Below are positions 4,511 through 46,387 of a DNA stretch of 64,000 bases, piece after piece. The stretch's first letter is position 1, and each line of letters starts with the position of its first letter. The stretch is taken from sequence record ON568341.1; one strand, given 5' to 3'. The stretch is from Escherichia phage UE-S1. The position numbers were made by a program, and so were the translations under genes. The notes below the pieces were generated by a model. That model ran no database searches and was not told where the DNA came from. It worked only from the letters and a program-made list of their open reading frames with translations.

Positions 4511-4592
<82 letters not shown>

Positions 4593-4593
4593 G

Positions 4594-4626
<33 letters not shown>

Positions 4627-4631
4627 GTGCT

Positions 4632-4753
<122 letters not shown>

Positions 4754-4774
4754 TATCTTACTTTTAAACAAACT

Positions 4775-4848
4775 GCCTCAATAGCAAAATTGGTAATGCA
4801 CACGATTTGTAATCGTGAGATTTTTCCGTTCGAGTCGGAATTGGGGCA
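4775..4848 (+). tRNA. tRNA-Thr (anticodon TGT)
   Basis: Acceptor GCCTCAA/TTGGGGC (one G-U), anticodon stem CACGA/TCGTG with loop TTTGTAA, T-arm TTCCG-TTCGAGT-CGGAA; 6-nt variable loop. Confidence 0.65.
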
Positions 4849-4864
4849 CAAATAAAGGCACATT

Positions 4865-15732: not shown

Positions 15733-16686
15733 TTGAAAAAACTAGATTTGAATGCAATTGCAGATGAAGTACTGGACGAATGTTTTTCTAATGAAGAAGT
15801 CAATACACTTGATGCATTAGATTCAGTACAAGATGAAGATAAAGTTCAAAGTAATTTCAAGTTTAATATTAGTCTTAAGCGTCCACATAATGTAACAAAT
15901 GAAGATCTAATCCGTGATATTCAAGCTGGTATCAATGTTAAGAAAAACACTGAACTATTAGTTCGTTATAATTATGGACTAATTGTTGATGTTGCAAGTA
16001 AATGCACGTGTTATATCCCATTTGAAGATAAGATATCATATGGTATTGAGGGATTCATGCGAGCACTAAAAACATTTGATCTTAGTAAGAATGTTAAGTT
16101 CGTTACATACGCATCTTCCAGCATTTATATGACAGTATACAATGAAAGTTCAGATGCCAATCATCTGGTACATTTTCCACGCTATATGAGTGTTAATAAG
16201 ATACAAGTTAAACGCTTTTGTCATGAATATGAGCGTAAGCACGGTTGTCGTCCAACACCTGAACTAATTTCAGAGGGGACGGGAATTGAAATTCAACATG
16301 TAAAGAATTGTTTGTTATTCCAAAGTGAATATACTGCATTGGATGCACCATTGGATGGTGTTTCGGATGGTACGTTAAGTGATATTCTTCATACATCTGA
16401 TTGCGATTACAATCTTAATGTTGATAGTATTCGTGCACCTTTGCGTTATGTCATTAATGATCTAACACATGAATTGAGTACGAAAGAACGTGAAATTATC
16501 CAGCGTGTTCATGGTTTAGGTGAATTTAATCCTGAATCACTTCGTGAAATTGCTGATAGTGGTTTTGTTGATGACAATGGCAAATGTGTTAAATCAAGAT
16601 CATCTGTACACCGTAAATATAGTGAAGCTATAAAAAAACTTAAGAAATTAGTACTTGAAAAAGGGTACGAATACGAAGATTTCTAA
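15733..16686 (+). CDS. sigma-70-family-like protein (regions 2 and 4 recognisable)
   Basis: LVRYNYGLIVDVASK...GIEGFMRALKTFD...VKFVTYASSSIYM resembles sigma region 2; C-terminal SLREIADS..KSRSSVHRKYSEAIKKLKKL resembles region 4.2; TTG start after AGGAG. Confidence 0.5.
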   Translation: MKKLDLNAIADEVLDECFSNEEVNTLDALDSVQDEDKVQSNFKFNISLKRPHNVTNEDLIRDIQAGINVKKNTELLVRYNYGLIVDVASKCTCYIPFEDKISYGIEGFMRALKTFDLSKNVKFVTYASSSIYMTVYNESSDANHLVHFPRYMSVNKIQVKRFCHEYERKHGCRPTPELISEGTGIEIQHVKNCLLFQSEYTALDAPLDGVSDGTLSDILHTSDCDYNLNVDSIRAPLRYVINDLTHELSTKEREIIQRVHGLGEFNPESLREIADSGFVDDNGKCVKSRSSVHRKYSEAIKKLKKLVLEKGYEYEDF

Positions 16687-16693
16687 AGAACAA

Positions 16694-16720
16694 GGGTTGA
16701 CTTAGGTCAACCCTTTTTTT
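16694..16720 (+). terminator. intrinsic terminator
   Basis: GGGTTGACC-TTAG-GTCAACCC hairpin plus T7 run. Confidence 0.7.
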
Positions 16721-17348
16721 ATGGGACAAATTATAAAGTTATGATATACTTATTATGTACAATCCTGTTGAATGCAGAAATGCATATAAATGAGAACCTG
16801 ATCCTATCGAAAATGTAGATGGCAGATGAGCAGTTCAACAGTGCGATGAGCAGAAGAAACCCGTCAGATGTGGGCATAGTTTGAACCCCTCACGGCAATG
16901 CGGCTCAATAAAGAACCATGTTAGGATAGCTGATGGTTCCTTGATAGACATATAAGGATAACACCTTACGAATTATCTAAGGGAGAGTACTCAAATTTTG
17001 TACAAGAAAGTTGCGTCCAAAATTTGAGTACTCACATTAAGTATTTGATTGCATAGATACTTAATGAAGATACACTATGTTTAAAAGTGTAGACCGTCAT
17101 ATGAAACTGAAGTAGAGAGAAACAGGATGACCCGCTTTCGCACTCGTTATGAGTAATCTTCAATGCAATAGCTCTGATACCATCAGCGTCAAATTTCCCT
17201 CCGCAGTGGGGGGAAGAAAAATCACCTCCTCAAATCCCGTCAATATTAAAAGTCCTTGACAGTTATTAATCATTCGCGTAGAATACGTAGTATTAGAAGC
17301 GAACAGACATCTCGAAGAGATGGATGATTAACTATTGAGGAATTTCCA

Positions 17349-24976: not shown

Positions 24977-25168
24977 ATGCTGATTTATAAATGTGATAAT
25001 ATTCGTGTTCTACAACATCCTTATCTTCAAATCTTTGATGTGCAGATGTTCATGGAAGGTGATAATCCGAGAACCTATGGACGTAAGTATGATTATTTCA
25101 CGGTCAAGCAGTGCAACAACATTGATGAAGTACGACGATTAGTACATGAACTCCAAAACAAAGGTTGA
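24977..25168 (+). CDS. hypothetical protein (63 aa)
   Basis: Track ORF ending inside terminator stem. Confidence 0.45.
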   Translation: MLIYKCDNIRVLQHPYLQIFDVQMFMEGDNPRTYGRKYDYFTVKQCNNIDEVRRLVHELQNKG

Positions 25169-25194
25169 CTTCGGTCAGCCTTTTTTGTTATAAT
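25163..25194 (+). terminator. intrinsic terminator overlapping promoter-like hexamers
   Basis: GGTTGAC-TTCG-GTCAGCC hairpin plus T6; the stem TTGACT and a downstream TATAAT are spaced 18 nt like -35 and -10. Confidence 0.65.
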
Positions 25195-25222
25195 TATTTT
25201 ATATTCTAATGGATTTTAAATT

Positions 25223-25663
25223 ATGTTAGTATATCGTTTTGAACTTAAATTTAGTTACATTGAACCTGATTTGAAACCAGCAACAAATGTTGGTCCATTT
25301 GCACGGTATTCTTCAAAATACAGTACTAAAAATGGTTTTGACCGTTTGTATATGTCTACGCCTACGCAGTTCCAACCTGAACCAACTGATGATGGAATCT
25401 ATTCAATCAAATATGGATGGGCATTTGGCTGTCAAAGTTTGAATGATTTGTTTCGGTTCTTTACTATGGACTTGGGTAAATTACATCGTGCTGGGTTTGC
25501 TATTTCCGTATATGATGTACCTGATAATCATGTGGATATTGGTCGTAATCAGGTTCAGTACTATTGCGGTAGTGCAACATTGGTTCGTATCATGTCAGTT
25601 AAGGATGCAAAGGTGGAGTACAGTCAAAGTAAAAGAGTAATACATGAGGCTATATATGGATAA
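25223..25663 (+). CDS. hypothetical protein (146 aa)
   Basis: Track ORF. Confidence 0.5.
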   Translation: MLVYRFELKFSYIEPDLKPATNVGPFARYSSKYSTKNGFDRLYMSTPTQFQPEPTDDGIYSIKYGWAFGCQSLNDLFRFFTMDLGKLHRAGFAISVYDVPDNHVDIGRNQVQYYCGSATLVRIMSVKDAKVEYSQSKRVIHEAIYG

Positions 25664-26000
25664 GACACAAATAGAATTGAAAAAATTTGTATCATTCTAT
25701 CTACCAAATGATCCACGTACTTCACAAAAAGATTTTGAATATTATAATATTCTAAGTAAACAGTTAATGAGAAAGTTTCAACAGTGTTTAAGTATATTCA
25801 ATACCGATGGTAGACGTAGATACCGAATCATTTCAATGAATGATGAAAACGCAAACTACTTTGATTATGATGTTGTTTTTAGAGCATATAATGATGACCG
25901 AATTAAATTAAATTATGATCAAATAATATTTGATCTAAGTGCTATATCTGTTATAATCACGCATATCGCCGAGATTAATGGTTTTAAAGAGTGGTATTGA
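25644..26000 (+). CDS. hypothetical protein (118 aa)
   Basis: Track ORF. Confidence 0.5.
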   Translation: MRLYMDKTQIELKKFVSFYLPNDPRTSQKDFEYYNILSKQLMRKFQQCLSIFNTDGRRRYRIISMNDENANYFDYDVVFRAYNDDRIKLNYDQIIFDLSAISVIITHIAEINGFKEWY

Positions 26001-26014
26001 TTAGAGGACAACAT

Positions 26015-26281
26015 ATGAAGCTTAAATTGCAATATAACGGATTTACTTTACGTAATGATACTGAGTTTGTAAATCGTTCACCTGGTGCTGAACTTTTTTT
26101 GCGAGAGATGAACATTCCTTTCATTGTCACCACTGTTGGGGATCGTGAAGTTTTACAATACGCAGAGCATCCTATTATTGATGTTCCTTGGTATTCTGAA
26201 CATATGTACATGGATATGGCACGTCGCTACAACTGTAAGTTCATAGTAGAAGGTGATAAAATTACAGTACAATTTAAATGA
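26015..26281 (+). CDS. hypothetical protein
   Basis: Track ORF 25991 trimmed to ATG after GAGGACAACAT. Confidence 0.45.
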   Translation: MKLKLQYNGFTLRNDTEFVNRSPGAELFLREMNIPFIVTTVGDREVLQYAEHPIIDVPWYSEHMYMDMARRYNCKFIVEGDKITVQFK

Positions 26282-26421
26282 TGTGAATTGAAATGAACAG
26301 TACTACACTCAATTTAAGCATCATCGCAAATGTAGAAATATAATATAAAAAGGGAAATCATATATGGTTCCCCCTTTTTCTTATTACGTACAATTAAGTA
26401 CATATATTAATTGAGGAAATT

Positions 26422-26994
26422 ATGAATCGTAAAGGCCGTTTTAAGGTATCAAAGAAGAATAAGAGTTCTAGGTTTAAACCTATAGTGTTAACAGTTAAAG
26501 CTAAAGAAGAATTAACTGCACTTAGTAAAAAGATCATTTCATCTAAGATCAAAATATCATATATAAATTCAGTAAAATATCAAAATGTAAAACCACGAGA
26601 TCAACTTATTTCACTTATATTTGAACGTAATGATTTTGAGATATCAGTAGATGATTATAGAGCCTATAATGCTGGCTTCATTAATGTTACTTGTAATAAA
26701 GAACTAACTGCATTAGAAAATTTGTCATGTATAATAAATCTAGATAAAGGTGTTGTGAAATACCATTTTGTACATTTCACTAATATCAATAATGGAATGG
26801 GCGTAGAATCCAGACCTATAGTGCCTACGTGTGATGTTACTAAATTAGCAAAACTCAATGATGAAGAATATTTTCAAGAAAGCATTGTAACTGAGCATTT
26901 AGATGATATAATAGCAACTTACAAAGAATGCATATGGGTTTTGAATGCCATTAAGCCTAAATTGTGTTTAATGAATATTGTTCGTGATTTATGA
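26422..26994 (+). CDS. hypothetical protein (190 aa), basic N-terminus
   Basis: Track ORF with GAGGAAA RBS. Confidence 0.55.
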   Translation: MNRKGRFKVSKKNKSSRFKPIVLTVKAKEELTALSKKIISSKIKISYINSVKYQNVKPRDQLISLIFERNDFEISVDDYRAYNAGFINVTCNKELTALENLSCIINLDKGVVKYHFVHFTNINNGMGVESRPIVPTCDVTKLAKLNDEEYFQESIVTEHLDDIIATYKECIWVLNAIKPKLCLMNIVRDL

Positions 26995-27007
26995 ATGGGA
27001 AATTAAA

Positions 27008-27451
27008 ATGGGTTGGGTAAATGTAAATAGTATTGAACTTAACGAACAAGATATTTTTGCATTTGTGAATTTGACCAATAATACAGTACTGAAAGGGCGT
27101 TTGTTCAGAGCGAGTGATGGATATAAATGGATCTCTTTGATGGATGATTGTGGTGTGATTTATAATGCAATGCAATTGCCACAGTGGGTATATAGTAATA
27201 CTTCTGACGATGTTCTTGCCGCTGTTATGCGTGAGTTTGAAAAACTACCAGGTGGTGATATGAAAAACAAAGTTTTTAATGCAGAACGTCATAATTATAC
27301 AGCACAGCAATTGGAATCACTTGCCATTGCTGCATATCAAGCTGCTATTAAGAAGCCAGAGTGTGTTATTCTTAAGTACGTCCCAGACTTAAAACTCACG
27401 TTGGAAGATATGGATGCATTCATTTTTACATCTGAACTTGAACAGTACTGA
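27008..27451 (+). CDS. hypothetical protein
   Basis: Track ORF (TTG at 26978) trimmed to first ATG. Confidence 0.45.
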   Translation: MGWVNVNSIELNEQDIFAFVNLTNNTVLKGRLFRASDGYKWISLMDDCGVIYNAMQLPQWVYSNTSDDVLAAVMREFEKLPGGDMKNKVFNAERHNYTAQQLESLAIAAYQAAIKKPECVILKYVPDLKLTLEDMDAFIFTSELEQY

Positions 27452-27565
27452 TTTAACTTTGGGACAAACTTTTCTATAATGATATAATTTTCTTGTCTGA
27501 TTATTTAAATGACATGTTGAAGTATAAATATTATTGTAAAGTTATCTCTTATAGGAGTTATAAAA

Positions 27566-27949
27566 ATGGTTGATAAATGGAATAAGAAAGATCCATCCCA
27601 TGATGTTGATATTTCTGATCTAGATGATGCACATAAGCATAAGTATCTAGATTCACTAGGTCTTCTCAAACCGGACCAAAGTCTTGCACACGAACGCCCA
27701 TCACGTGAAAAAGCATTCAGTCTAGAATCACTTGGTCATGAGCTAAATCGTGTGTTTGAAGAACACCCAATTTATGTACGTGATATTATTGAGAAACTTA
27801 AAGTAACTCCTAAAGAGCACTTTAAAGCAACTGTACATTCTGCATTCCGTGCATTGCATGATTCTCTCAAGAAAACTCATAATCTTCGTAAAATTCATGA
27901 TGAAATTGTGAATGCAATCGAAAGTGAAAAGCATAAGTTCAAGAAGTAA
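27566..27949 (+). CDS. hypothetical protein (127 aa), K/E-rich
   Basis: AGGAG RBS; shares LDSLGLL motif with next gene. Confidence 0.5.
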   Translation: MVDKWNKKDPSHDVDISDLDDAHKHKYLDSLGLLKPDQSLAHERPSREKAFSLESLGHELNRVFEEHPIYVRDIIEKLKVTPKEHFKATVHSAFRALHDSLKKTHNLRKIHDEIVNAIESEKHKFKK

Positions 27950-27957
27950 TAGAAAAT

Positions 27958-27983
27958 GGGTTGACTTCGGTCAGCCTTTTTTT
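27958..27983 (+). terminator. intrinsic terminator
   Basis: GGGTTGAC-TTCG-GTCAGCC plus T7. Confidence 0.7.
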
Positions 27984-28014
27984 ATATACTATAAATATAG
28001 TCATAGAGAAAAAC

Positions 28015-29289
28015 ATGAAATCTATGGAGAGAAATCAAATGCCAAGTAATTTTACTGATAAAAATGGTGGTAACATGGCAGGTCACTCGGATAAATGGAG
28101 TGAACGCAACCGCCGACCAAATAGTTACCAAGCAGGTCAAGGTTCTCGTGGCTCCAGAAACCAAGGAACTGGTCTAGCTGGTAAAGCAAATGCTGAACCT
28201 GGTGAAGTTAAAAGTACTGAGAACATGACTGAGCTAGAAAAACTACGCTACGTTAATTCATTGGGACTTCTTAATGCTACACAAAAACAACGTCTAGCTG
28301 ATATGGAACGTGAAGAAAAAGAAAAGACTGCTCCTGCGAAAGAAGAACCAAAACAAGAAGCACCAAAGGCGGTTAACCCTGTCAAAGAACTGTCTGATAA
28401 GTTAGGTAAGATCTTTGCAAATAAACCCCAACTTATTCAAGGTATTGTCAAAGAATTGCAATCTGTACCTAAAGAAGAATTAAAAGCCAAAGCACAAGCT
28501 GTTCTGGATGCAATGAAAGGAAATACCAGTACTGAACCAACCGAAGTATTCAGTACTATTATGCGTGCACTGGAAGGTAAACAACAAGGTGAAGAACGTG
28601 GTGATGAAGTAAGTCTTGAACGTGTTCTTAAAACATTTGATAGTATTGGGAAAGAAGACCGTGTTAATGCACAACAGGTTAAAAATGTACTAGCAAAATT
28701 GGAAAACCGTCTAGAAGGTAAAGATGATAAGATTAAATTGGTATCCGATGCAGTTGAAAATGCACTTAAATCTTATGTACAAGGTGAAAAGAGTCGTTTT
28801 GTAACTGCTATGGATGCTGCATTCAATACTATGAAAAAGTACGAAGCGGATCATGGAGAGAAGGTAACACGAGATGGTTATTTAATGCGTGATGATGAAG
28901 AAGGTGCAGTGGAACAGAATGATGCTCATTCTGACGAAGATATTGATGACATGGAAGCAGAACTGTCACAGGACCGCCAAATGACTGAAAAATCTCACAA
29001 TGAACTACAGAAATTAATGCAGTGGGTTGCAGAAGTAGGTGAAAAGGCTGGTGAAGATAAGAAGAGTATCAACCGAAACCTAAGTTGGATTAAAGATAAG
29101 GTTGGTAATAACGCTCGTAAACTACAAAAAGCATGGACTGATGTAGTGAATGGTGCGGTAGATATTGATGTTGAGTCTGGTGAAGCATATGATTATGCAT
29201 TGACTACACTTGATGATTCTTTTCGTGACTACGAAAAAGGAAACGTTACTCCTTGGGAAAAGGACATAATGAGTAAATATGGTAAATGA
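28015..29289 (+). CDS. hypothetical protein, highly charged K/E-rich
   Basis: Track ORF 27961 trimmed to ATG downstream of the terminator; paralogous motif SLGLL. Confidence 0.5.
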   Translation: MKSMERNQMPSNFTDKNGGNMAGHSDKWSERNRRPNSYQAGQGSRGSRNQGTGLAGKANAEPGEVKSTENMTELEKLRYVNSLGLLNATQKQRLADMEREEKEKTAPAKEEPKQEAPKAVNPVKELSDKLGKIFANKPQLIQGIVKELQSVPKEELKAKAQAVLDAMKGNTSTEPTEVFSTIMRALEGKQQGEERGDEVSLERVLKTFDSIGKEDRVNAQQVKNVLAKLENRLEGKDDKIKLVSDAVENALKSYVQGEKSRFVTAMDAAFNTMKKYEADHGEKVTRDGYLMRDDEEGAVEQNDAHSDEDIDDMEAELSQDRQMTEKSHNELQKLMQWVAEVGEKAGEDKKSINRNLSWIKDKVGNNARKLQKAWTDVVNGAVDIDVESGEAYDYALTTLDDSFRDYEKGNVTPWEKDIMSKYGK

Positions 29290-29298
29290 TAACAAAAA

Positions 29299-29322
29299 GG
29301 TTGACTTCGGTCAGCCTTTTTT
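29299..29322 (+). terminator. intrinsic terminator
   Basis: GGTTGAC-TTCG-GTCAGCC plus T6. Confidence 0.7.
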
Positions 29323-29358
29323 GTTATCATAGCTTTCCTAACTACAAAGGATGACGTG

Positions 29359-30000
29359 ATGACTAAGCAAGAAATATTCAAAACATTAATTGACATTTTA
29401 CGTTCATCTAAAACTCGTTGTGCAATGGAGTTTGATATTCCTTACGCTGAACGAGTCATCTTTCCACAAGTAAAAGCGGCAGGTCTTACTTTACTTGGTA
29501 TGGGGATGTACTCTGTAGTAGTTGAACATAAAAACTATCCAGGTCGTGCATTTAAAGTAACCACGTCACGATGGGATGGTTTTCGTGCTTATGCAAAGTA
29601 CTGTATTGATAACACAGGAACTAAGTTTCTTCCTGTAATATACAGTGCAAATGAACAAGGAAACTTTGGATGGTATGAAATGGATAAGTACTACCCTATC
29701 ATTAAACAAAAAAATAATTATGATGACTTTGTTAGTACTAAAATTGGAGATTTGTATTCGTATGCACATGCTGGTCAGTACGCAACTTCAGTGAATGAAC
29801 TGCGTGGAAATTCAGAAGAGATTGCCATTGCAACTGTTGCAGCTAACATAATGAAAGAGTTTCATGGTCGTTTTGTACCAGACATTCATTCCAGTAATGT
29901 GATGATGGATAAAGATGGAAATTTATTCATCACTGACCCTATTTCGTGTGATGTACGTCGAGAAATACCAATCACTGAAGAAGACCCAATTTTTTATTGA
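29359..30000 (+). CDS. protein-kinase-fold protein (putative kinase or phosphotransferase)
   Basis: DIHSSNVMMDKDGNLFITD matches catalytic-loop D..N and DFG-like spacing of eukaryotic-like kinases. Confidence 0.45.
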   Translation: MTKQEIFKTLIDILRSSKTRCAMEFDIPYAERVIFPQVKAAGLTLLGMGMYSVVVEHKNYPGRAFKVTTSRWDGFRAYAKYCIDNTGTKFLPVIYSANEQGNFGWYEMDKYYPIIKQKNNYDDFVSTKIGDLYSYAHAGQYATSVNELRGNSEEIAIATVAANIMKEFHGRFVPDIHSSNVMMDKDGNLFITDPISCDVRREIPITEEDPIFY

Positions 30001-30063
30001 CAGAACTTGTGTTCTGGTGTATATTAAGTGAATTATAAACAAATTGTGACACAGGATTAAATC

Positions 30064-30345
30064 ATGCGTTCATTTGAAAACTTAATAGGTAAACTTCTTT
30101 TATCTGAAATTGAAGAAGACGTTAAGGAATTATGCAAATCAAAAAGTTACATTCATTTGGATGAACTGTTTGTTAAGTACGGAGAGATTAGTTTTAAATC
30201 ATTATTTGTTTTTACTATGAAAGTACATAGTTTAAAGCACTTCGATTTAAGTTATAAAAATGATCAACCAAATCTATATCATATGTATTATCTCAAGAAT
30301 ATAGAAGAAGCTCATGCATTATTTTCTGAATATCTGAAGGTATAA
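30064..30345 (+). CDS. hypothetical protein (93 aa)
   Basis: Track ORF. Confidence 0.5.
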   Translation: MRSFENLIGKLLLSEIEEDVKELCKSKSYIHLDELFVKYGEISFKSLFVFTMKVHSLKHFDLSYKNDQPNLYHMYYLKNIEEAHALFSEYLKV

Positions 30346-30346
30346 A

Positions 30347-30685
30347 ATGGAACAATATTTTGAATTAATTAATAAAGTGTCATTCTATGTAGTGTCATTG
30401 ATGTGGGTTTATTTCATGTTTTGCTACATTATTGCATTCTTCCGATACACTACTTTATATGAACGTATCTATTATGATGCACCGATTTCATTCTTGGTAT
30501 TCTGTGCGTGTACGTGGGGAATATTAGAAGTACTGATATGTGGATATAGTACTGATGAATTAAATCTGGTATCGGTATTGACTGGGTTATCACTTGGCGT
30601 TATGATATCTTTCTTTCCAGTATGGTTGTTCTTTGAGCTGTTCCATCGCATTGATGTATGGCGTTCTAATATCCCTGAAAAATAA
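30347..30685 (+). CDS. small membrane protein, paralogue family A (1 of 3)
   Basis: 3-4 hydrophobic helices; C-terminal tail R.NIPEK. Confidence 0.55.
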   Translation: MEQYFELINKVSFYVVSLMWVYFMFCYIIAFFRYTTLYERIYYDAPISFLVFCACTWGILEVLICGYSTDELNLVSVLTGLSLGVMISFFPVWLFFELFHRIDVWRSNIPEK

Positions 30686-30688
30686 GGA

Positions 30689-31036
30689 TTGATAATGATT
30701 TATTACACTAACGTGTTTGCCTATGCTGTTGCTTGCATTTACATTGTTTACTTCTTATTTGGTGGAGTGCTTTACTTCTTTAAGTACAAAACACTGTTTA
30801 ATAGGATGTATCCAAATCACCCTATCGTAGTTGTACTTTTGATTCTTTCTGTTTCCCAAATAATCGTTGAAACTACAATGGGTATCAGTAGTGTACATTA
30901 TAGCTTCGGTACTATAGTAATTATTACTATGCTTATTGCATACATTTTAGTACTTGGATATGGTATATTTGGTAATGTTGGAATGAAAATGTATCATCGA
31001 ATTAAAACCTTACGTGATAATCTACCGGAGCGTTAA
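30689..31036 (+). CDS. small membrane protein, paralogue family A (2 of 3)
   Basis: Shared FxYxTLxxRxY motif and tail LRDNLPER. Confidence 0.55.
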   Translation: MIMIYYTNVFAYAVACIYIVYFLFGGVLYFFKYKTLFNRMYPNHPIVVVLLILSVSQIIVETTMGISSVHYSFGTIVIITMLIAYILVLGYGIFGNVGMKMYHRIKTLRDNLPER

Positions 31037-31037
31037 T

Positions 31038-31382
31038 ATGTATAATTTAAACCTAATCTCATATATTATAACAACACTGTTTACATTCTATGCCTTTGTT
31101 GGTATAATCCTACTGTACTTTAAATTTTATAAAGTGTTTAACCGTTTCTATCCTTCAATGGAGAATGAGTTTTTCTTTGTGTTGTACGTAGGTTACACAT
31201 TAATGGCTACATGTTTCACTGTAGCCGATGGTGTCATCGGCATTAAAACTGATGCACCAAATGGTAGTACGCTGGTTGCATTTATTCTTACCGGATTCCT
31301 TGCAACTTATATTGCCTTCATTACAACATGGTCAGTAGTTGAATTTCTCTTGCGACTACGTAAGAATATGCCGAATCGATAG
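31038..31382 (+). CDS. small membrane protein, paralogue family A (3 of 3)
   Basis: Track ORF 31014 (GTG) trimmed to ATG after GGAG; tail LRKNMPNR. Confidence 0.5.
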   Translation: MYNLNLISYIITTLFTFYAFVGIILLYFKFYKVFNRFYPSMENEFFFVLYVGYTLMATCFTVADGVIGIKTDAPNGSTLVAFILTGFLATYIAFITTWSVVEFLLRLRKNMPNR

Positions 31383-31391
31383 GAGACATAT

Positions 31392-31646
31392 ATGTTTGCA
31401 TTGCGTAATAAAGACACTAAAGAATTATTATGTATTGATACCGTATGGGATTGTGCGGGTTCAACTACTGTTCTTGAAGAAGGAACTGGTTGTTGTGTGT
31501 TTGTTGTTCAAGATAAGAATATTCTCGAATCATTACTTGCTGAGTTCAATGCTGGTGATAATCCTAATAGTACTGAATACCCTGAGATTATCAATCCAGC
31601 ACCTCCAGGTTCTTATGAAATCCTACCACTATGGGTGTTGAAATAA
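31392..31646 (+). CDS. hypothetical protein (84 aa)
   Basis: Track ORF. Confidence 0.5.
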   Translation: MFALRNKDTKELLCIDTVWDCAGSTTVLEEGTGCCVFVVQDKNILESLLAEFNAGDNPNSTEYPEIINPAPPGSYEILPLWVLK

Positions 31647-32026
31647 TGCGACAAATGTACAAAGTAACCGAGCTAAACAAGCGTCTGGTTAAACAATCTA
31701 TGTTTGAGGATAAAGAGTCTTACTATAACTTTAAACGTGCTGTAGAGGCTGCTATCCACATTCAGAAGCTTAAAGAACGTGGTTTTATTATTCTGGAAAA
31801 TGGTTCGGAAGTTGTAACGGATGACTTTAGTGTAGCGTTTGATGTTTCACCTGATGGCACGCTATCAATGCCCCGCTTAGGAACTGGAAACATGACTGTT
31901 TGGGTTGGCTTCACTATGGGGAATGTACCTGGTACTGTGTACGTAGATGATGCGGAATTGAAAGACAGTTTCAAAAACTTATCTTATCTGGAACCACAAT
32001 ACGCACATGAAATGAATTTATTTTGA
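31646..32026 (+). CDS. hypothetical protein
   Basis: Track ORF 31631 trimmed to ATG overlapping previous stop (TAATG). Confidence 0.45.
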   Translation: MRQMYKVTELNKRLVKQSMFEDKESYYNFKRAVEAAIHIQKLKERGFIILENGSEVVTDDFSVAFDVSPDGTLSMPRLGTGNMTVWVGFTMGNVPGTVYVDDAELKDSFKNLSYLEPQYAHEMNLF

Positions 32027-32027
32027 G

Positions 32028-32055
32028 TTGACAAACACATTCAGTACTGTATAAT
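32028..32055 (+). promoter_or_regulatory. sigma-70-type promoter (TTGACA-16-TATAAT) followed by stem-loop 32066-32083
   Basis: TTGACAAACACATTCAGTACTGTATAAT then GGGATGA-ACTTC-TCATCCC hairpin before RBS. Confidence 0.6.
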
Positions 32056-32102
32056 GTTTATCAAGGGGATGAACTTCTCATCCCTACAATCGAGGAACGA
32101 CC

Positions 32103-32657
32103 ATGATTACTTTTAAGAAAACTGCTAACCACATCCATGAAATCTACATTAACGGTCACAAAGCTGGCCTTCTTCGTTTACTCAGCCATCATCCTGATGT
32201 TACTGTATCTGATAATGAACCTAAAGATTGGCGTGTCTTTTTCTTTGGGAAGTACAGTGATTTTCAAGTATCAAACCTGAAGAACATTCGTTCAGTATGC
32301 ACGTTAACTGAAATTAAAGAAAAGTTAGTAAAAGCATTGAAAACTAATCCAGATGCAGTTCTTCCACCAGATAATTTTGTAGAGAAAGGTTATGCCTTAG
32401 CTCATTTCAAAGATGGCACTATTCAATCTATCAGTACTGCATATGAATATCAATGGACTGAGTACTTCACTTATGGCTCCCGTGAAACTTTGATGGCTTC
32501 ACGTAGTAAATTGGAAGAAGTAATAACTATTATAAATGAACGTGAACGTCATTTATATGATAAACCTGAAATGTGGAGTTCAACTTACATTGACCGTATT
32601 GACTATGTTATTATGTCTCCAATCTTTGACACTGCTTACTATGATTCTTTGAAATAA
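32103..32657 (+). CDS. hypothetical protein (184 aa)
   Basis: Track ORF, GAGGAA RBS. Confidence 0.55.
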   Translation: MITFKKTANHIHEIYINGHKAGLLRLLSHHPDVTVSDNEPKDWRVFFFGKYSDFQVSNLKNIRSVCTLTEIKEKLVKALKTNPDAVLPPDNFVEKGYALAHFKDGTIQSISTAYEYQWTEYFTYGSRETLMASRSKLEEVITIINERERHLYDKPEMWSSTYIDRIDYVIMSPIFDTAYYDSLK

Positions 32658-32668
32658 GGATAACTTAT

Positions 32669-32845
32669 ATGAAACTTCGTACTCGCAATCGTTTGATGGA
32701 TGCACTGTACCACGAACAATGTACATTGAATGACACAAAGCGTCAGTTAATGTATACATATCAGTTACCAGCCCGTGCTGCGAAACAACGTGCCAAAGAA
32801 TTACTAAAAGAAGCTATCGAGTACTGGGAATCTGATTCGTACTAA
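32669..32845 (+). CDS. hypothetical small protein (58 aa, below track cut-off)
   Basis: ATG after AAGGAT; fills gap between flanking genes. Confidence 0.4.
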   Translation: MKLRTRNRLMDALYHEQCTLNDTKRQLMYTYQLPARAAKQRAKELLKEAIEYWESDSY

Positions 32846-32884
32846 TATTACGTGAAATGTCACGTTAATTAATTGAGGCGATAA

Positions 32885-33136
32885 ATGAAAATTTTATTAG
32901 TTCTAATACTACTAGTTGTTTTACCATTTACTTTAGTATCACCTGAACTTGCATGGAATGTGTTTGTGTACTTAGTATGTACTATTGTAGTAAATGGTAT
33001 CTTGTTCTTAGTTCTATTCATAAATGGAATAGGACACGGTGGAGGATGGACCAATACTGCTGATATTGTACATAAAACCACTATGTCTTTATTTGTTGTG
33101 TGGAATTTATTCTGGACTTGGTTTGTGTTCTTCTAA
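32885..33136 (+). CDS. small membrane protein (83 aa)
   Basis: Three hydrophobic helices. Confidence 0.5.
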   Translation: MKILLVLILLVVLPFTLVSPELAWNVFVYLVCTIVVNGILFLVLFINGIGHGGGWTNTADIVHKTTMSLFVVWNLFWTWFVFF

Positions 33137-33145
33137 TTAAAAAAT

Positions 33146-33517
33146 ATGAATATAGATTTGAAAGGTGCAACCCGAACTGTTATTCTCATTGGGGAATACG
33201 CTATCAAGATTCCAACTTTCAAAAGCTGGAAGTTATTCTTAACGGGAATGATAGCTAACCTAAATGAACGTTCGTGGATGCAGTACTCCAATCGTAGTGA
33301 CAGTAGTATCTGTCCTACGTTGTGGTCATCATGTACTGGACTAGTAACTGTACAGAAACGTTGTAAGCCAATACATCATAGGGGTTTATTTTGGGTGGAG
33401 TTGTGTGCTTTAGCATTGAATTCAGAGTTAAGTGCTGACTTCTTCTATTCAGATGCGAAGCCAGAAAACTTTGGGTATCTGGGTGGTAAGTTAGTTAAAC
33501 TTGATTATGGAGATTAA
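33146..33517 (+). CDS. hypothetical protein (123 aa)
   Basis: Track ORF. Confidence 0.5.
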   Translation: MNIDLKGATRTVILIGEYAIKIPTFKSWKLFLTGMIANLNERSWMQYSNRSDSSICPTLWSSCTGLVTVQKRCKPIHHRGLFWVELCALALNSELSADFFYSDAKPENFGYLGGKLVKLDYGD

Positions 33518-33518
33518 T

Positions 33519-33788
33519 ATGTACGCACTGTATAATAAAGAAAAGAAACAATTTGCTAAGGTTGAAATTTCGATTGATACATTTGATATGTTGGAGTACT
33601 GTATTGTAACGGACCCATATGCTAATTTGTATTACGTTCATGATGACACATCAGTACTGCAACGATTGCTTGAGAGTTCAAAAAGTCAATGTCAGGGAAT
33701 CCATGATGGTTCATCCTATGAAACTCCTGAGTGTTCATATGGCTGTCTGGATGGATATGAGATTGTTAAGTTGGGGATCGTTGAATAA
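33519..33788 (+). CDS. hypothetical protein
   Basis: Track ORF 33501 trimmed to ATG after GGAGA. Confidence 0.45.
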   Translation: MYALYNKEKKQFAKVEISIDTFDMLEYCIVTDPYANLYYVHDDTSVLQRLLESSKSQCQGIHDGSSYETPECSYGCLDGYEIVKLGIVE

Positions 33789-33794
33789 AGAAAA

Positions 33795-33827
33795 GGGTTG
33801 ACTTTGGTCAGCCCTTTTTGTTATAAT
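33795..33827 (+). terminator. intrinsic terminator overlapping promoter-like hexamers
   Basis: GGGTTGAC-TTTG-GTCAGCCC plus T5; TTGACT and TATAAT 18 nt apart. Confidence 0.65.
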
Positions 33828-33855
33828 TTTTTCATCGAAACGTGAGGATGAATAC

Positions 33856-34371
33856 ATGACACGCATTAACTTAGTACACGTTAAAGAACTTGCAGACCAA
33901 CATCTGATGGCTGAATATCGTGAACTACCACGTGTATTTGGTGCTGTACGAAAACACGTTCACGCACGTAAGCGTGTACGTGATTTCAAAATTAACAGTA
34001 CTTATCTGTTAGGTTCAGGTCATGTGACCTTCTTTTACGACAAGTTGCTGTACTTACAGAAGCGTCATATCGATATTGTCAACGAATGTTTGCGTCGTGG
34101 GATGAAGATTCAAAATACTGAAGTAAACGACATTAGCAGCTTCCCTGCTGAGTTTTGTAATGACTATGTACCATCGGAGTCAGAGATTAAAATGTCTCGT
34201 GATCGTTTGATTGAGAAGCTCCAGATGAAGCCTACGTGGTATAAGTTTACTGACGTTGAACGTCCACAGTACGTTAAAGATATTCAGGACGTAAGTAGTA
34301 ATATAGAATCTAGTACGGATATGTTAGACGAAATTGAAGAACAAATCAAAAATGAAATGAATAATTATTAA
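33856..34371 (+). CDS. denV: pyrimidine-dimer DNA glycosylase / AP lyase (T4 endonuclease V homologue)
   Basis: N-terminus MTRINL...[33 protein letters not shown]...[10 protein letters not shown] matches recalled T4 DenV, including catalytic Thr2 and Glu23; ~30-residue C-terminal extension. Confidence 0.85.
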
Positions 34372-34409
34372 AGGAAAGGATTGACTTCGGTCACATAAAG
34401 GAACATAAC

Positions 34410-34604
34410 ATGTTATTAGTATATTCAAAGCGTTTCTGGATTTCTTTTATTGTACTATCGCTAATCGGCTTCGGTGTGAGTATGCTCTTTTCGTGGAATG
34501 AATTGGGCACATGGTATTATGAAGTCCCGTGGTACATGAAGATAGCTCCTTGTTACGCGGCTTTGTTCGTATCATTCCTTATTGTTGTCTTCAGCGAGGA
34601 TTAG
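34410..34604 (+). CDS. small membrane protein (64 aa)
   Basis: Two hydrophobic helices. Confidence 0.45.
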   Translation: MLLVYSKRFWISFIVLSLIGFGVSMLFSWNELGTWYYEVPWYMKIAPCYAALFVSFLIVVFSED

Positions 34605-34711
34605 TTGATGTAGTATGTTCTACATCAAAAGTATTTGGATATTTGAGATATAAACATTGACACATGTTCTATCTTTCTGTATTATGTACATCACCAAATG
34701 AGGAATACAAC

Positions 34712-35071
34712 ATGGCATCTTTAAGTGAAATCGCGGAATACAATCCACTAACAATCTCAACAATTCAACGTACAAAAACTTTTTATTTCCGTCCTGTTGA
34801 TGGATGGAAACGTGGAATGAATAGTGACTATCGAGTACTGGAAGATTCACTCATCGAGCGTATCAACTCTGAACTACAGAAGTATGAAGGTGTTAAAGTT
34901 GTACGTTCAACTTCTCGTTATTTTGAGTACTATATTGAGTCTTTAACAGTAAATGAAAACTCATCATCATCTGTGGATAACACTGATATTCTTCGTAATG
35001 CAGTTGGTCTGTTATGCAACATTGCAGAAGAAATGGGATTAACTATCACAACAATGAGTGAAATAGAATAA
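34712..35071 (+). CDS. hypothetical protein
   Basis: Track ORF 34664 trimmed to ATG after GAGGAA. Confidence 0.45.
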   Translation: MASLSEIAEYNPLTISTIQRTKTFYFRPVDGWKRGMNSDYRVLEDSLIERINSELQKYEGVKVVRSTSRYFEYYIESLTVNENSSSSVDNTDILRNAVGLLCNIAEEMGLTITTMSEIE

Positions 35072-35078
35072 CAAAAAA

Positions 35079-35103
35079 GGGTTGACTTTAGTCAGCCCTT
35101 TTT
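35079..35103 (+). terminator. intrinsic terminator (composite with downstream CTATAAT)
   Basis: GGGTTGAC-TTTA-GTCAGCCC plus T5. Confidence 0.65.
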
Positions 35104-35139
35104 GCTATAATCATTTCATCAACTGATGAGGATAACGAA

Positions 35140-41953: not shown

Positions 41954-43144
41954 TTACAATTGTCTAGGTGTATCCAGAACATATCTATTTGTGCTAGGAC
42001 CGCCATCATCATAAGTTCCGGTTGAATATATATTTTTCATATCAGCAGTTAGAAATGTACGATACGAACCTCTATATATTTTTATTTTATCATACATATT
42101 ATATGTAATTTGTGCTGGCATTGGACATATAGTAAATCTTCCAATAGTCCCCACTGAACCTACCCCCAATGAGCCAGCATAACTACTCGCATTTAAACCA
42201 GTTGCATATACACCAGAACTCGTAACTAGTATACTAGATTGTGATGGGTATCCAGTATGAATTGAATACAAAGTTCCAGGTGGTAATGTCGTACTATTTC
42301 TCCCTAATACAGCAAGTGCCGAACTGGATGTGGTATTATTACCCCATGCACCATTACTTGCTAAACCACCAACTAGGAACTGACGTACACCCGTACTTGG
42401 ATTTTCCACCAAAGCACTGACTGAACCCATTGAGCATCCAGTGTATTGTAACGTTTTTGTGTATGTTGTACTTGGCTGATATAAAGTATATTCATTATAT
42501 AAAGTCCATGTAGTACTGGAACTTATACCGGATGTACCACCACCAATATATAAATTATTTTGTTTATCAAACAACATTACACAGTTATTTGTTGACATTA
42601 TTTGTGCAATATCAACATTAGGTGTTACTGCTTTTACAAATGAACCATCTGTTATTTGTTGAGTTTTTCCAGTACCATCAGCGAATTGTCTAGCCCCACT
42701 CCAACCAGTACTCCATATTGTATTATTATCCATTAAGAAAGTAAACCACGTAGTACCTGCATACATCTGTTTAATTGAAGTACTTGAACTTTGTTTGTAC
42801 AAATTTTCAATATATTGGTTATAACTTAAAAATGATGTAGTACTGGTTGGTAAACCAATATGACTACCAAATCCACAATAGAAATAATTTAAGTCATTAT
42901 CTTGAACTAACAAAGTTCCTTGTGTGATCCAGCAATCATTAACGTTTTCTCTAATTAATGTCCATGTTCTTAATGCAGTGTTGTTTCCTCTCCCAAACTG
43001 CCCAAAACTATTATTACCTCGTGCATATAGTTGACCATCAGTATAAAGTACAACAACATCAGTATCGGTTGTTAGTATTTTCTTAATTTGAAGTGGGATA
43101 GGTACAATATTCCCGTACTTAACCATTCTTGCAAAAGGTAACAT
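41954..43144 (-). CDS. conserved-N-terminus family protein, beta-propeller-like (array member 7)
   Basis: MLPFARMVKYGNIVP; G/S/T/N-rich with NSFGQFGRGNN repeat. Confidence 0.65.
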   Translation of the reverse strand: MLPFARMVKYGNIVPIPLQIKKILTTDTDVVVLYTDGQLYARGNNSFGQFGRGNNTALRTWTLIRENVNDCWITQGTLLVQDNDLNYFYCGFGSHIGLPTSTTSFLSYNQYIENLYKQSSSTSIKQMYAGTTWFTFLMDNNTIWSTGWSGARQFADGTGKTQQITDGSFVKAVTPNVDIAQIMSTNNCVMLFDKQNNLYIGGGTSGISSSTTWTLYNEYTLYQPSTTYTKTLQYTGCSMGSVSALVENPSTGVRQFLVGGLASNGAWGNNTTSSSALAVLGRNSTTLPPGTLYSIHTGYPSQSSILVTSSGVYATGLNASSYAGSLGVGSVGTIGRFTICPMPAQITYNMYDKIKIYRGSYRTFLTADMKNIYSTGTYDDGGPSTNRYVLDTPRQL

Positions 43145-43180
43145 ATTTTCCTCCTTTATTCATTATACTATATTTAATCA

Positions 43181-43208
43181 AAAAGAAAAGCCAGTATCAA
43201 GTACTGGC
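43181..43208 (-). terminator. inter-cassette hairpin plus T-run
   Basis: GCCAGTA-TCAAG-TACTGGC; minus strand followed by TTTTCTTTT. Confidence 0.55.
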
Positions 43209-44024: not shown

Positions 44025-45167
44025 TCAATAAGTATCCCAAGGTAATGGTGTCTTCCTAAATCCATACCTGGTTGTGCTCGCACCATCACCAGCAATGTAT
44101 CTACCTATACCACATTGGTATAACTCTGTACTACTACATATAGCACCACCTATAGTACCACTACTCCACTGAATTATATTAGAATATGTTATTGGTAAAT
44201 CACTACATTTAGTATATACAGCAACGGTAGAAGCACCACTAATACCACCAAACATACTTCGCTTAGCACCAGTGTAATATATACCATCTGGACTCATAAA
44301 TGCAGAGGTGTAAGTTGTACTGCAATCCACTGGACTTCTTATTGTATTAAGATCGCCTGGATATGTTCTGACACCAAAGGTGTATACATTACCATCAGTT
44401 GTAATACCATTACCTAACTGCCCACTGTTTTGTCCACCACATGTAAGCAACGATGCAGAACCAGAAACAATTGCAGTAGCATTATACGAAGTGCCCATTG
44501 CAATAGAAGCACCAGACAATAGTTTTGGAGTAACAATAGCTGTTGTATTACCCTGGCCTAATTCACCATTTGTGTTTCGTCCCCATGCGTATATGGAAGT
44601 AGTATCCAACCTACATAGTACTGAACCATAACTAAACGTATATCGCATGTCAATTACCGCAGAAGGCAAATTAACCTTAGTTGCAACACTAATAACACCA
44701 CCAGTAACACCACTGTTTGCGTTCATGTTACGACCATATGCATATAAAGAACCATCTGAAGTTTTAATATGCATCATACCATCTGTACAATATAATGCAT
44801 CTATACTCTCCACCGCAACCGGACCCATACTGGTAGTTATATCGGTCCACCCAAGAGTAGTAGTACTAGAAATTAAGTTATTTCCTGCGTATAGTATTCT
44901 ATTATTATTAGTAACTACAACTGTATATCTGGCAGTAACACCAATTAATCGAACATCAGTATATATCTTAGACCACGCACCTAATGAATTGGTGTTTGCA
45001 TCCAAAAAGCCCAACTGCCCATCTGTATTGTATCCAATGCCCCATACATCACCTGCACTGTCCAATAACACTTCATGTGAAAATCCAATCTTAAAATCTT
45101 TTATTGTAGGAACTACCGGATCTGGTGCAATATTCCCGTACTTAACCATTCTAGTAAAAGGTAACAT
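44025..45167 (-). CDS. RCC1-like beta-propeller protein with conserved N-terminus (array member 5)
   Basis: MLPFTRMVKYGNIAP; repeats GYNTDGQLGF, GRNTNGELGQGN, GGQNSGQLGNG. Confidence 0.7.
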   Translation of the reverse strand: MLPFTRMVKYGNIAPDPVVPTIKDFKIGFSHEVLLDSAGDVWGIGYNTDGQLGFLDANTNSLGAWSKIYTDVRLIGVTARYTVVVTNNNRILYAGNNLISSTTTLGWTDITTSMGPVAVESIDALYCTDGMMHIKTSDGSLYAYGRNMNANSGVTGGVISVATKVNLPSAVIDMRYTFSYGSVLCRLDTTSIYAWGRNTNGELGQGNTTAIVTPKLLSGASIAMGTSYNATAIVSGSASLLTCGGQNSGQLGNGITTDGNVYTFGVRTYPGDLNTIRSPVDCSTTYTSAFMSPDGIYYTGAKRSMFGGISGASTVAVYTKCSDLPITYSNIIQWSSGTIGGAICSSTELYQCGIGRYIAGDGASTTRYGFRKTPLPWDTY

Positions 45168-45203
45168 AATTCCCTCCCTTATTCATTATAATATATTTAA
45201 TAC

Positions 45204-45234
45204 AAAAAAGAAAAGCCAGTACTTGAGTACTGGC
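45204..45234 (-). terminator. inter-cassette hairpin plus T-run
   Basis: GCCAGTACT-TG-AGTACTGGC. Confidence 0.55.
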
Positions 45235-45240
45235 ATTATG

Positions 45241-46350
45241 TTATTTTGGTAAATCAATTTTAGTAAAGACTGCAACATCCTCGCTTGCCCCAGGAATGGC
45301 GTAATACGATCCAGTACTATATACATCTCCGTCTTTGGTTAATATTGATGTTAAACCATCACTAAAAAGAACATCCCTAATCTCACTAACTTCAACGGGT
45401 AATTGTAAATTAGTAGCACTATATATTGCACCAGTTTGAGAATTGTTTAATCCCAAACCACGGTTCGCCCCAACACCCTTCTGATATGTACTAGTAATTA
45501 TCATTTGTGTAGCAGTATTTAAGGCAGGTGAATTCGTCATAAACAACGGAGAACTATTAGGCAAAGTACTTGCAGGAACTGCACGAAATGAAGTTGTATC
45601 TGAACTAAGAAAGTTTGGCGTTTGACCACATACGAAATATGATGTACCATTATAGTAATTAAATGCATTACCACCAATGACTGCATCGATTACACCAGAG
45701 CTACGTAATCCCCACGTGTTAATTTGTGTTCGGTTCCCCGTGCCATGCTGACCCCTGTCATTCCACCCAGAACTATATAACTTATTATCTAATGTAATAT
45801 ACATACTGTCATTTGCATTCGTCATTACTTTACGCACATTAGTAGCACATTGAGTTAATGTGTAAATTGATGATGAACCAATACCTAAAGCACCACGATA
45901 TCCATTAGCTCCTGCACCATAGAGTACTGAACTAGTGCTAAGTACAAATATTAAACCATACGAACATACAATATTAGCAATTTCACTCACTGGTATAGCA
46001 CTGGTAAACCAATTAGTTCTTTCAACTAATACTGTGCTGTAAGAAGTAGTTGTAGACGATGTGAACCAATATGTTTCCCCTGATGTCCATATAGTATTAT
46101 CATTTTTAATAATAACAAGTGCACGATCACCTACGAAAAAATTAGAAACATCTGCACTTACTAATATCCATGAAGATACCGTGTTTTTATTACCATTTCC
46201 AGATTCACCACCTTGATTTCTACCTATGTAATATAAATCATGTGAATCAGTTAATAAGAATTGACCCTGTGTAGATGCACCAACTTTAATTATATTTTTA
46301 GGACCAGGTACAATATTCCCATAATCAAACATTCTTACAAAAGGTAACAT
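45241..46350 (-). CDS. RCC1-like beta-propeller protein with conserved N-terminus (array member 4)
   Basis: Track ORF to 46365; start moved to internal ATG (MLPFVRMFDYGNIVP) with GGAG 9 nt upstream. Confidence 0.65.
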   Translation of the reverse strand: MLPFVRMFDYGNIVPGPKNIIKVGASTQGQFLLTDSHDLYYIGRNQGGESGNGNKNTVSSWILVSADVSNFFVGDRALVIIKNDNTIWTSGETYWFTSSTTTSYSTVLVERTNWFTSAIPVSEIANIVCSYGLIFVLSTSSVLYGAGANGYRGALGIGSSSIYTLTQCATNVRKVMTNANDSMYITLDNKLYSSGWNDRGQHGTGNRTQINTWGLRSSGVIDAVIGGNAFNYYNGTSYFVCGQTPNFLSSDTTSFRAVPASTLPNSSPLFMTNSPALNTATQMIITSTYQKGVGANRGLGLNNSQTGAIYSATNLQLPVEVSEIRDVLFSDGLTSILTKDGDVYSTGSYYAIPGASEDVAVFTKIDLPK

Positions 46351-46387
46351 AACTAAAATCTCCATATAATAATTATAATGTATTTAC

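Follow-up and report, generated by a model that had tools for sequence, protein, structure and literature searches.

Probable PeSL-type terminator–promoter cassettes between genes of an Asteriusvirus jumbo coliphage

Here we describe a short sequence unit that recurs between genes of Escherichia phage UE-S1 (record ON568341.1). We analysed a stretch of 64,000 nucleotides, called the window throughout and numbered from its first letter; in it a hairpin resembling an intrinsic terminator is repeated past the ends of genes, and in six of its seven copies the bases of the stem's 5′ arm also read as the −35 hexamer of a promoter-like sequence facing the next gene. Between 25 and 36 kb the window shares 86–92% identity with 15 complete Asteriusvirus genomes—121Q, PBECO4, G17, phAPEC6, Sharanji, and others—and, judged by sequence, it is Asteriusvirus DNA from a jumbo coliphage of the 121Q/PBECO4 kind. 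These relatives are jumbo coliphages with genomes of ~350 kb, and their genus is placed directly under the Caudoviricetes, without family assignment. Their records for this stretch annotate genes for a protein kinase, the denV repair enzyme, and HNH/homing endonucleases. In all, at least 34 Escherichia records gave matches.

Occurrence and layout of the repeat

The 18-mer GGTTGACTTCGGTCAGCC was searched in the window with up to three mismatches allowed, and 100 dinucleotide-preserving shuffles served as the null. Seven matches were found, all on the + strand and with zero to two mismatches, at 16695 (two mismatches), 25163, 27959 and 29299 (none), 33796 (one), 35080 (two), and 63703 (none); the shuffles gave no match. 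A first-pass annotation of the same DNA had listed a recurrent hairpin at these sites, and the list holds, with four coordinates off by one base; its variant at 16694 stands among the seven as a terminator only, and it missed a truncated copy at 34379–34396 (GATTGACTTCGGTCAcat), the one extra copy returned by a relaxed search (TTGAC-N3-6-GTCA). The same annotation had placed TTGACT 18 nt before TATAAT in several copies, which is what we find at 25163, 33796, and 35080.

Substitutions among the seven copies either fall in the loop or replace the stem's T·G wobble by T-A; none of them breaks the 7-bp stem. The 4-nt loop position holds TTCG, TTTG, TTTA, or TTAG. A stop codon lies 0–10 nt upstream of every copy, and a run of four to seven T follows each. 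Six copies share a composite layout of 40–45 bp: an A-tract directly 5′ of the stem, the 5′ arm GG-TTGACT doubling as the −35, the loop, the 3′ arm GTCAGCC, the T-run, TG(T/C), and a −10 hexamer. The hexamer begins 18 nt after TTGACT (17 nt at 63703) and reads TATAAT with TGn at 25163, 33796, and 35080, TATCAT with TG at 29299, TATTAT with TG at 63703, and TATACT without TG at 27959; a test for an extended −10 thus finds TGT or TGC before the hexamer in five of the six. In five composites the next gene's start codon, with its Shine-Dalgarno sequence, comes 14–47 nt past the −10; the copy at 63703 has a leader of ~180 nt instead.

The first composite (25154–25194) comprises a hairpin at 25163–25180, a −35 at 25165–25170, a T-run at 25181–25186, TGT at 25186–25188, and TATAAT at 25189–25194; it folds at −14.0 kcal/mol (z −4.3), the next gene starts at 25223, and the orthologous copy in G17 is annotated as a terminator. 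The TGA stop (25166–25168) of the open reading frame (ORF) 24977–25168 lies inside its TTGAC, an overlap that G17 annotates too, and one hexamer would here serve as coding end, stem arm, and −35 at once. The second (27950–27990; hairpin 27959–27976, −35 27961–27966) has a T7 run and TATACT at 27985–27990, with the next gene at ~28039. The third (29290–29330; hairpin 29299–29316, −35 29301–29306, TGT, TATCAT 29325–29330) folds at −17.3 kcal/mol (z −6.5) and precedes a gene starting at 29356/29359, homologues of which are annotated as protein kinase in relatives.

In the fourth composite (33787–33827) the hairpin at 33796–33813 has the loop TTTG and is followed by TGT and TATAAT (33822–33827), the −35 lying at 33798–33803; it folds at −18.8 kcal/mol, carries TCATCGAAAC near the expected start site, and is predicted to drive denV (endonuclease V; 33856–34371). 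Past denV lies the half copy at 34379–34396, made up of the 5′ arm, the loop, and 4 nt of the 3′ arm, without T-run or −10; it folds at −3.2 kcal/mol (z −0.5), the hairpin being lost. The fifth composite (35071–35111; hairpin 35080–35097 with loop TTTA, −35 35082–35087, TGC, TATAAT 35106–35111) folds at −18.1 kcal/mol, with the next gene at 35140. The sixth (63694–63733; hairpin 63703–63720, −35 63705–63710, TGC, TATTAT 63728–63733) folds at −15.9 kcal/mol, has a covarying outer T-A pair, and is followed by the leader mentioned above, which is conserved. It is the first of a series running past the window, with counterparts at 40056, 43530, 46797, and 49549 in the relative EC22.5-2.

The remaining copy (16686–16722, + strand) is a perfect palindrome, GGTTGACTTAGGTCAACC, at 16695–16712, with an A/T-extended stem and a T7 run; it folds at −17.3 kcal/mol (z −4.9) and lies 8 nt past the stop of ORF 15733–16686. 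It has no −10 at 17–18 nt spacing and scored as terminator-like on both strands, and we read it as a terminator only, a two-way hairpin. The ~640 nt past it (16713–17348) hold no + strand ORF of at least 50 codons; inside them is an extended −10-like site, GGGACA-16-TATACT with TG, at 16723–16750.

The RNA hairpin and the nested promoter

As + strand RNA, the intact units fold at −14.0 to −18.8 kcal/mol (z −4.3 to −6.5) with stems of 7–13 bp, and the − strands of two copies fold at −8.7 and −12.1 kcal/mol. The hairpins, with five to seven U behind the stem, fall within the usual description of an intrinsic terminator (a GC-containing stem, a loop of 3–8 nt, at least five U within 8 nt of the stem, and a place past a stop codon on the coding strand), and they look like competent ones. 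Among 52 Asteriusvirus copies, 37 have the loop TTCG (the cUUCGg tetraloop), and the base opposite the third stem position, T3, is G in 46 and A in five. This G gives a G·U pair in + strand RNA and a C·A mismatch on the reverse strand. A double compensatory change, GG/CC to GA/TC, occurs in three copies, and TTGAC itself stays the same where bases elsewhere in the stem are exchanged in compensating pairs.

The pair just outside the 18-mer could be compared in 96 unique copies from all loci: it is G-C in 59, A-T in 24, G·T in seven, and T-A in four. It is therefore complementary in 94 of 96, against 71.8 expected under independence, and none of 20,000 shuffles reaches 94—a result to be read beside a slid-partner control, which gives no discrimination here, the 3′ side being T-run. 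Together, the G·U wobble, the loop bias, and the covariation point to selection on an RNA hairpin. The wobble may have a second role: since the reverse strand carries a C·A mismatch and CTGAC instead of TTGAC, it would keep both the stop and the start signal one-directional.

The palindrome could also be viewed as a DNA operator, GGTTGAC-N4-GTCARCC, bound over the −35 by a dimeric phage or host regulator that silences early promoters, the RNA hairpin being irrelevant. Repressor operators classically take the form of a palindrome centred on a −35, early promoters need to be shut off after a few minutes, and Arbiol et al. speculated that the stem of a comparable phage repeat might be a protein target (PMC2839356). 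We nevertheless hold this explanation to be highly improbable. The G at stem position 16 pairs as G·U only in + strand RNA and leaves the DNA palindrome imperfect; the loop is enriched for an RNA-specific tetraloop (GAAA also occurs); a U-tract always follows the element, which always stands just past a stop codon; and the outer pairs covary with G·T among them. In addition, stand-alone TTGACA promoters of the same region have no palindrome like that of the composite.

The promoter half of the composite demands more care. Promoter-like hits in general are no commoner than in shuffled sequence (98 per 20 kb against 97.8 expected), so the argument for a promoter rests on position and conservation. 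We scanned IMG/VR with GGTTGAC-N4-GTCAGCC, a pattern that constrains the stem only. Multiple copies were found in RaK2, CBB, GAP32, fHe-Yen9-04, KVP40, and uncultured contigs of 100–400 kb; single GC-rich hits inside genes, where the T-run is absent, were set aside as chance matches. Of 103 unique T-tailed copies from many phages, 89 have TAnnnT at 16–19 nt, 86 of these at 17–18 nt, and TG(C/T) is nearly invariant before the −10 in the 89. Within the EC22.5-2 genome, a strong −10 follows eight of nine terminators with a TTGAC arm and 42 of 298 other hairpin-plus-T sites (Fisher p 2e-6), and an extended −10 follows six of nine against 17 of 298 (p 7e-6); the nine terminators are paralogues, so neither p is a clean probability.

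A comparison largely free of the paralogy problem is offered by denV. The element stands directly upstream of this gene in 121Q, RaK2, CBB, and an uncultured 371-kb contig (L136), and across these genera the stem, T-run, TG, and −10 are kept, whereas the loop, the remaining spacer sequence, and the genes nearby differ. T-even phages have a GTTTAC-type early promoter upstream of denV. A further conserved motif, (T)CATC(G/A)A(A)C, lies 5–7 nt past the −10 of 33796, 35080, and many related loci (for example L013, L016, L028, L052, L054, and L133). This motif, at the expected start site, is common to Asteriusvirus, RaK2, KVP40-like phages, and uncultured contigs, and it also follows stand-alone promoters; it may reflect a preferred start site or a signal in the leader.

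These observations bear on a simpler explanation, that the copies are a recombination-spread family of terminators in which the TTGAC and TATAAT-like sequences are incidental or hitch-hiking and initiate nothing. Public records annotate the sites solely as terminators: in G17, GAP32, and Muenster the orthologous hairpins are ARNold terminators (−13.5 to −17 kcal/mol at the G17 sites) without an overlapping promoter feature. The promoter features of GAP32 were called with TTGACA(N15-17)TATAAT, a filter that the composite units do not pass. The explanation also draws on AT-rich DNA, which yields −10-like hexamers by chance at the background rate given above, and on copies without a −10, such as 16695 and G17 L001:7198. 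It does not account for a −10 at a fixed 17–18 nt with near-invariant TG in several lineages, for the excess of −10 hexamers over other terminators of the same genome, for a TTGAC that stays constant while other stem positions covary, for the −10 and TG kept before denV beside a diverging spacer, or for the Shine-Dalgarno sequences and start codons so close behind the −10. We therefore regard it as improbable.

Gene blocks, genome-wide distribution and neighbouring signals

The stretch from 23 to 38 kb of the window was compared with five relatives. Three insertions in G17 are bracketed by two copies of the element: 183 bp with one ORF (at the 27959 site), 1085 bp with three (at 29299), and 1414 bp with two (at 35080). 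At each of these sites the window has one copy, and the BLAST segments overlap by 41–76 bp exactly there. Upstream of the window copy, identity is 85–95% to the left G17 copy, and downstream it is 80–95% to the right one; crossed comparisons give 55–67%. The two flanks match different G17 copies, and the junction therefore lies inside the element. By this comparison the single window copies are chimeric, as expected if cassettes were inserted, or recombination took place, at the element. One more G17 insertion, of ~510 bp at window 26339–26405, is away from any element.

The window has a bounded block of its own, 683 bp with two ORFs (34394–35076), which begins within the 3′ arm of the 34379 half copy and ends at copy 35080; it is absent from ph0011, which has one intact copy there. 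Compared with EC22.5-2, the whole window shows 24 indels of at least 100 bp, with ~5 indel boundaries no more than 30 nt from an element against 0.34 expected (Poisson p 3e-5). Two other origins were tried and rejected. A miniature inverted-repeat element or transposon does not fit a unit whose sole inverted repeat is a 7–13 bp hairpin with a 4-nt loop and which has no target-site duplication. Tandem gene duplication was rejected for the + strand family because the flanks of non-orthologous copies share only 55–67% identity and the genes that follow are of different lengths and families.

The content of the block at the 35080 site leads to another explanation. In both G17 (1414 bp; L001 14118–15465) and CRJP21 (a larger block; L122 14087–15976) two copies flank a block here with an ORF of the HNH/homing-endonuclease family (phrog_559 at 7e-24 and 8e-20; also phrog_9084), and other Asteriusvirus records annotate such endonucleases in the same stretch. 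The protein is QBO61588 in G17 and gp_558 in CRJP21. The element might then be the place where free-standing homing-endonuclease cassettes or another mobile unit home or insert, or an end that they carry with them, with its regulatory look secondary and its duplications left as insertion footprints. The other copy-bounded blocks (183, 1085, and 683 bp) have no recognisable nuclease, no target-site duplications or terminal repeats beyond the hairpin were found around copies or inserted blocks, six genomes keep the copies found at conserved positions, and the regulatory features are under constraint. A mobility site is thus a very unlikely account of the family, while free-standing endonuclease genes may use the intergenic units as landing sites.

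Beyond the window, the motif recurs in a complete relative, EC22.5-2 (OR845138; 351,992 bp), which holds ten composite copies, all on the + strand and all at 340.7–351.7 kb or 40.1–49.6 kb (~21 kb of 352 kb); four other TTGAC-N-GTCA matches in this genome were dismissed as chance hits inside genes. The same two regions hold most of its perfect TTGACA-N16-18-TATAAT promoters. Genes around the copies are short and mostly of unknown function: the cargo ORFs have no significant Pfam family, and PHROG matches of cargo and neighbouring ORFs are mostly to families of unknown function. This is the profile of an early, hyperplastic region dependent on host polymerase, and we infer early timing from it.

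Ten perfect stand-alone promoters (TTGACA-N16/17-TATAAT) lie on the + strand of the window, at 4452, 10925, 12772, 14134, 19081, 19429, 23388, 32028, 56038, and 57395. In several of them AGTACTG ends the spacer, and a GGGGA...TCCCC hairpin lies just past the expected start at 32028 and 56038; a similar unit is found at 63838–63896. This arrangement resembles the subclass of the RB49/phi1 repeats discussed below (PeSLs, promoter-early stem-loops) in which the stem-loop lies downstream of the −10.

An exact 16-mer, GGTGCGGGAGTGTATC, occurs on the + strand at 55182–55197, 57122–57137, and 63767–63782 (0.17 expected). It belongs to a conserved leader, ...CCCA(C/T)(A/G)GGGTGCGGGAGTGTATC, downstream of promoters, which recurs after element copies at 40–50 kb of EC22.5-2 and in uncultured contigs. 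The leader has weak structure (z about −1) and no Rfam match, and a permissive Rfam search of 54–64 kb gave no relevant match. At gathering thresholds, Rfam finds only five tRNAs in the whole window and no match to the element. The window has a five-tRNA gene cluster (71–145 and 2918–4849), the first tRNA of which ARAGORN labels 'tRNA-???' with a 4-base anticodon (tcat); it scores 51.8 bits in Rfam.

A second hairpin family lies on the − strand, at 38773, 41944, 43206, 44016, 45232, 47672, and 48865. Its layout is (G)CCAGTACT-loop-AGTACTGG(C), a T-run, TATTAAATATAGTATAAT, a Shine-Dalgarno sequence, and ATGTTACCTTTTGG, and six of the seven sites (not 38773) precede genes of a tandem paralogous array (MLPFG...); to this family tandem gene duplication does apply. 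Indel boundaries against EC22.5-2 fall at or near its sites (43074–43208, 45124–45238, and 46301–46352).

Proposed mechanism, reach and comparison with known systems

The first-pass annotation had proposed that the end of one transcript and the start of the next are packed together, and that the unit is a portable cassette between genes. The first proposal gains support from the fold, the U-tract, the nested −35 and −10, and the positions of the start codons, and the second from gene blocks bracketed by copies and from the pairing of element and denV across genera. We consider it probable that the repeats are composite regulatory cassettes of the PeSL type—the promoter–terminator repeats known from T4-like phages—in the early hyperplastic region of an Asteriusvirus jumbo coliphage.

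The following mechanism is proposed. In the upstream transcript, AAAA-GGUUGAC-UUCG-GUCAGCC-UUUUUU folds into a stable hairpin followed by a U-tract, in which RNA polymerase would stop; the hairpin probably also shields the RNA 3′ end. As duplex DNA, the same bases would offer the host E-sigma70 an UP-like A-tract, a −35, a spacer of 17–18 bp formed by the 3′ arm and T-run, TGn, and a −10. A new mRNA with a short leader would begin ~7 nt past the −10, at the conserved CATC motif, and termination at the unit would also guard the promoter against read-through. With the same ~45 bp repeated between genes that are unrelated, the element would at the same time be a patch of homology: its identity could serve as substrate for phage homologous recombination, through which blocks are deleted, inserted, or swapped with their own stop and start signals.

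Several points weigh against this reading, in addition to the slid-partner control. Two window copies have a weaker −10 (TATACT without TG, and TATCAT), an 18-bp spacer is suboptimal for sigma-70, and some copies in relatives, L001:7198 in G17 for example, have no −10. The copies are paralogous repeats, so counts within one genus are non-independent and the −10 could hitch-hike with the hairpin. Most indels in the window are away from the element, and the 1414-bp G17 insertion may be driven by its homing-endonuclease-family gene and not by the element. Finally, the literature searched gave no transcript 5′ or 3′ ends and no transcriptome for any Asteriusvirus: an ONT-cappable-seq paper does not cover the clade, papers on RaK2, Sharanji, and fEgEco12 mention neither promoters nor terminators, and in the CBB paper RpoD-like promoters and terminators are listed apart from each other.

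The unit reaches well beyond one genus. A composite of ~35 bp, AAAAG-GGTTGAC-N4-GTCAGCC-CTTTTTG(C/T)-TAT(A/T)AT, often followed by CATCGAAAC, is nearly verbatim across different higher taxa: Asteriusvirus, RaK2-like Alcyoneusvirus, CBB, GAP32, Yersinia and Erwinia jumbo phages, KVP40-like Vibrio relatives of T4, and uncultured contigs of 100–400 kb. Such a near-identical unit might be a common linker that lets unrelated large virulent phages exchange ready-to-express cassettes, an idea we put forward as speculative and rather doubtful; homing endonucleases between copies may actively help this exchange. The alternative to a linker is independent convergence, forced by the double constraint on a hairpin that contains TTGAC.

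If the PeSL-type reading is right, the strategy of a fused stop/start repeat that is also a recombination patch extends from T4-like phages to 350-kb Asteriusvirus and RaK2-like jumbo phages. It would help to explain how genes are gained and lost in ORFan-rich early regions without disturbing their neighbours. It would also mean that a class of early promoters is missing from annotation, where the sites are marked as terminators only—an 18-nt spacer and TTGACT fall outside TTGACA-N15-17 filters. For synthetic biology, the unit could provide a natural, compact part of ~45 bp that combines a one-directional insulator with a promoter. The concept itself is already published; what is new here is the phage lineage and the unusually uniform and compact form.

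Similar hairpins are familiar from T4: Tuerk et al. reportedly described, in 1988 (PNAS), intrinsic terminators with cUUCGg tetraloops in T4 intercistronic regions. The window copies share with them a GC-closed stem, a stable C(UUCG)G loop, a U-tract, and a place between genes of a large virulent coliphage. The T4 hairpins are not known to contain the −35 of the promoter that follows or to make up one repeated sequence family. The promoter half, in turn, recalls T4 early promoters, which are used by unmodified host E-sigma70 right after infection and likewise stack an A-rich upstream tract, a −35, TGn, and a −10 (PMC2988021). In contrast to the T4-type GTTTAC found before denV in T-even phages, the Asteriusvirus −35 is of the E. 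coli consensus type, TTGAC(T), and its 17–18 nt spacer is made of terminator sequence.

Lambdoid morons (Hendrix et al. 2000, as discussed in PMC2839356) are also single genes or small blocks that carry their own promoter and terminator. However, moron flanks have no conserved repeat and are not thought to mediate insertion, whereas the block boundaries in Asteriusvirus are one repeated sequence, with the junctions inside it.

The closest parallel is the PeSL. In RB49 and phi1, Arbiol et al. 2010 (PMC2839356) found cassettes repeated between genes, in which a stem-loop is combined with a near-consensus sigma-70 early promoter and an AT-rich tract upstream of it. They distinguished five subclasses by the position of the stem-loop, which covers the −35 in one of them, and demonstrated terminator and promoter activity with lacZ fusions, PeSL-bounded indels, and mini-circles that arise by recombination between neighbouring copies. 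Comeau et al. 2014 (PMC4122927; 'Composite conserved promoter-terminator motifs') extended them to PST/T4 and nt-1/KVP40, including 'half' degraded copies, and gave the nt-1/KVP40 stem consensus as A3-4G3-loop-C3T3-4. The KVP40 copies in our scan (L016, L040), with GGTTGAC-N4-GTCAGCC, a T-run, and TATTAT or TATTCT at 18 nt, fit this consensus.

There are differences. PeSLs were defined in T4-like myoviruses (Tquatrovirinae in Comeau 2014), a group to which Asteriusvirus does not belong; this taxonomic mismatch touches no mechanistic criterion and argues for a new lineage, not against the kind of element. Its design is uniform and fully nested, every terminator part being a promoter part, whereas RB49 stems take five positions; its conserved span is ~45 bp against ~100 bp, and its loop is mostly cUUCGg. 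Activity and mini-circles were measured in RB49/phi1, and the Asteriusvirus units are known from sequence. We found no description of such composites in Asteriusvirus or RaK2-like phages in the RaK2, CBB, Sharanji, fEgEco12, and PA5oct papers (the last without its supplementary tables).

There are also likenesses. Both systems have the same order of stop codon, AT-rich tract, sigma-70-type −35 and −10, stem-loop terminator, Shine-Dalgarno sequence, and start codon, and PeSLs include a subclass in which the stem-loop overlaps the −35. Both cluster among small ORFans in hyperplastic early regions; in both, close relatives differ by copy-bounded indels that leave a chimeric copy behind, and half copies occur. 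As far as sequence and comparison can tell, the window repeats are an instance of the published PeSL concept, agreeing with it on every sequence-level and comparative point tested.

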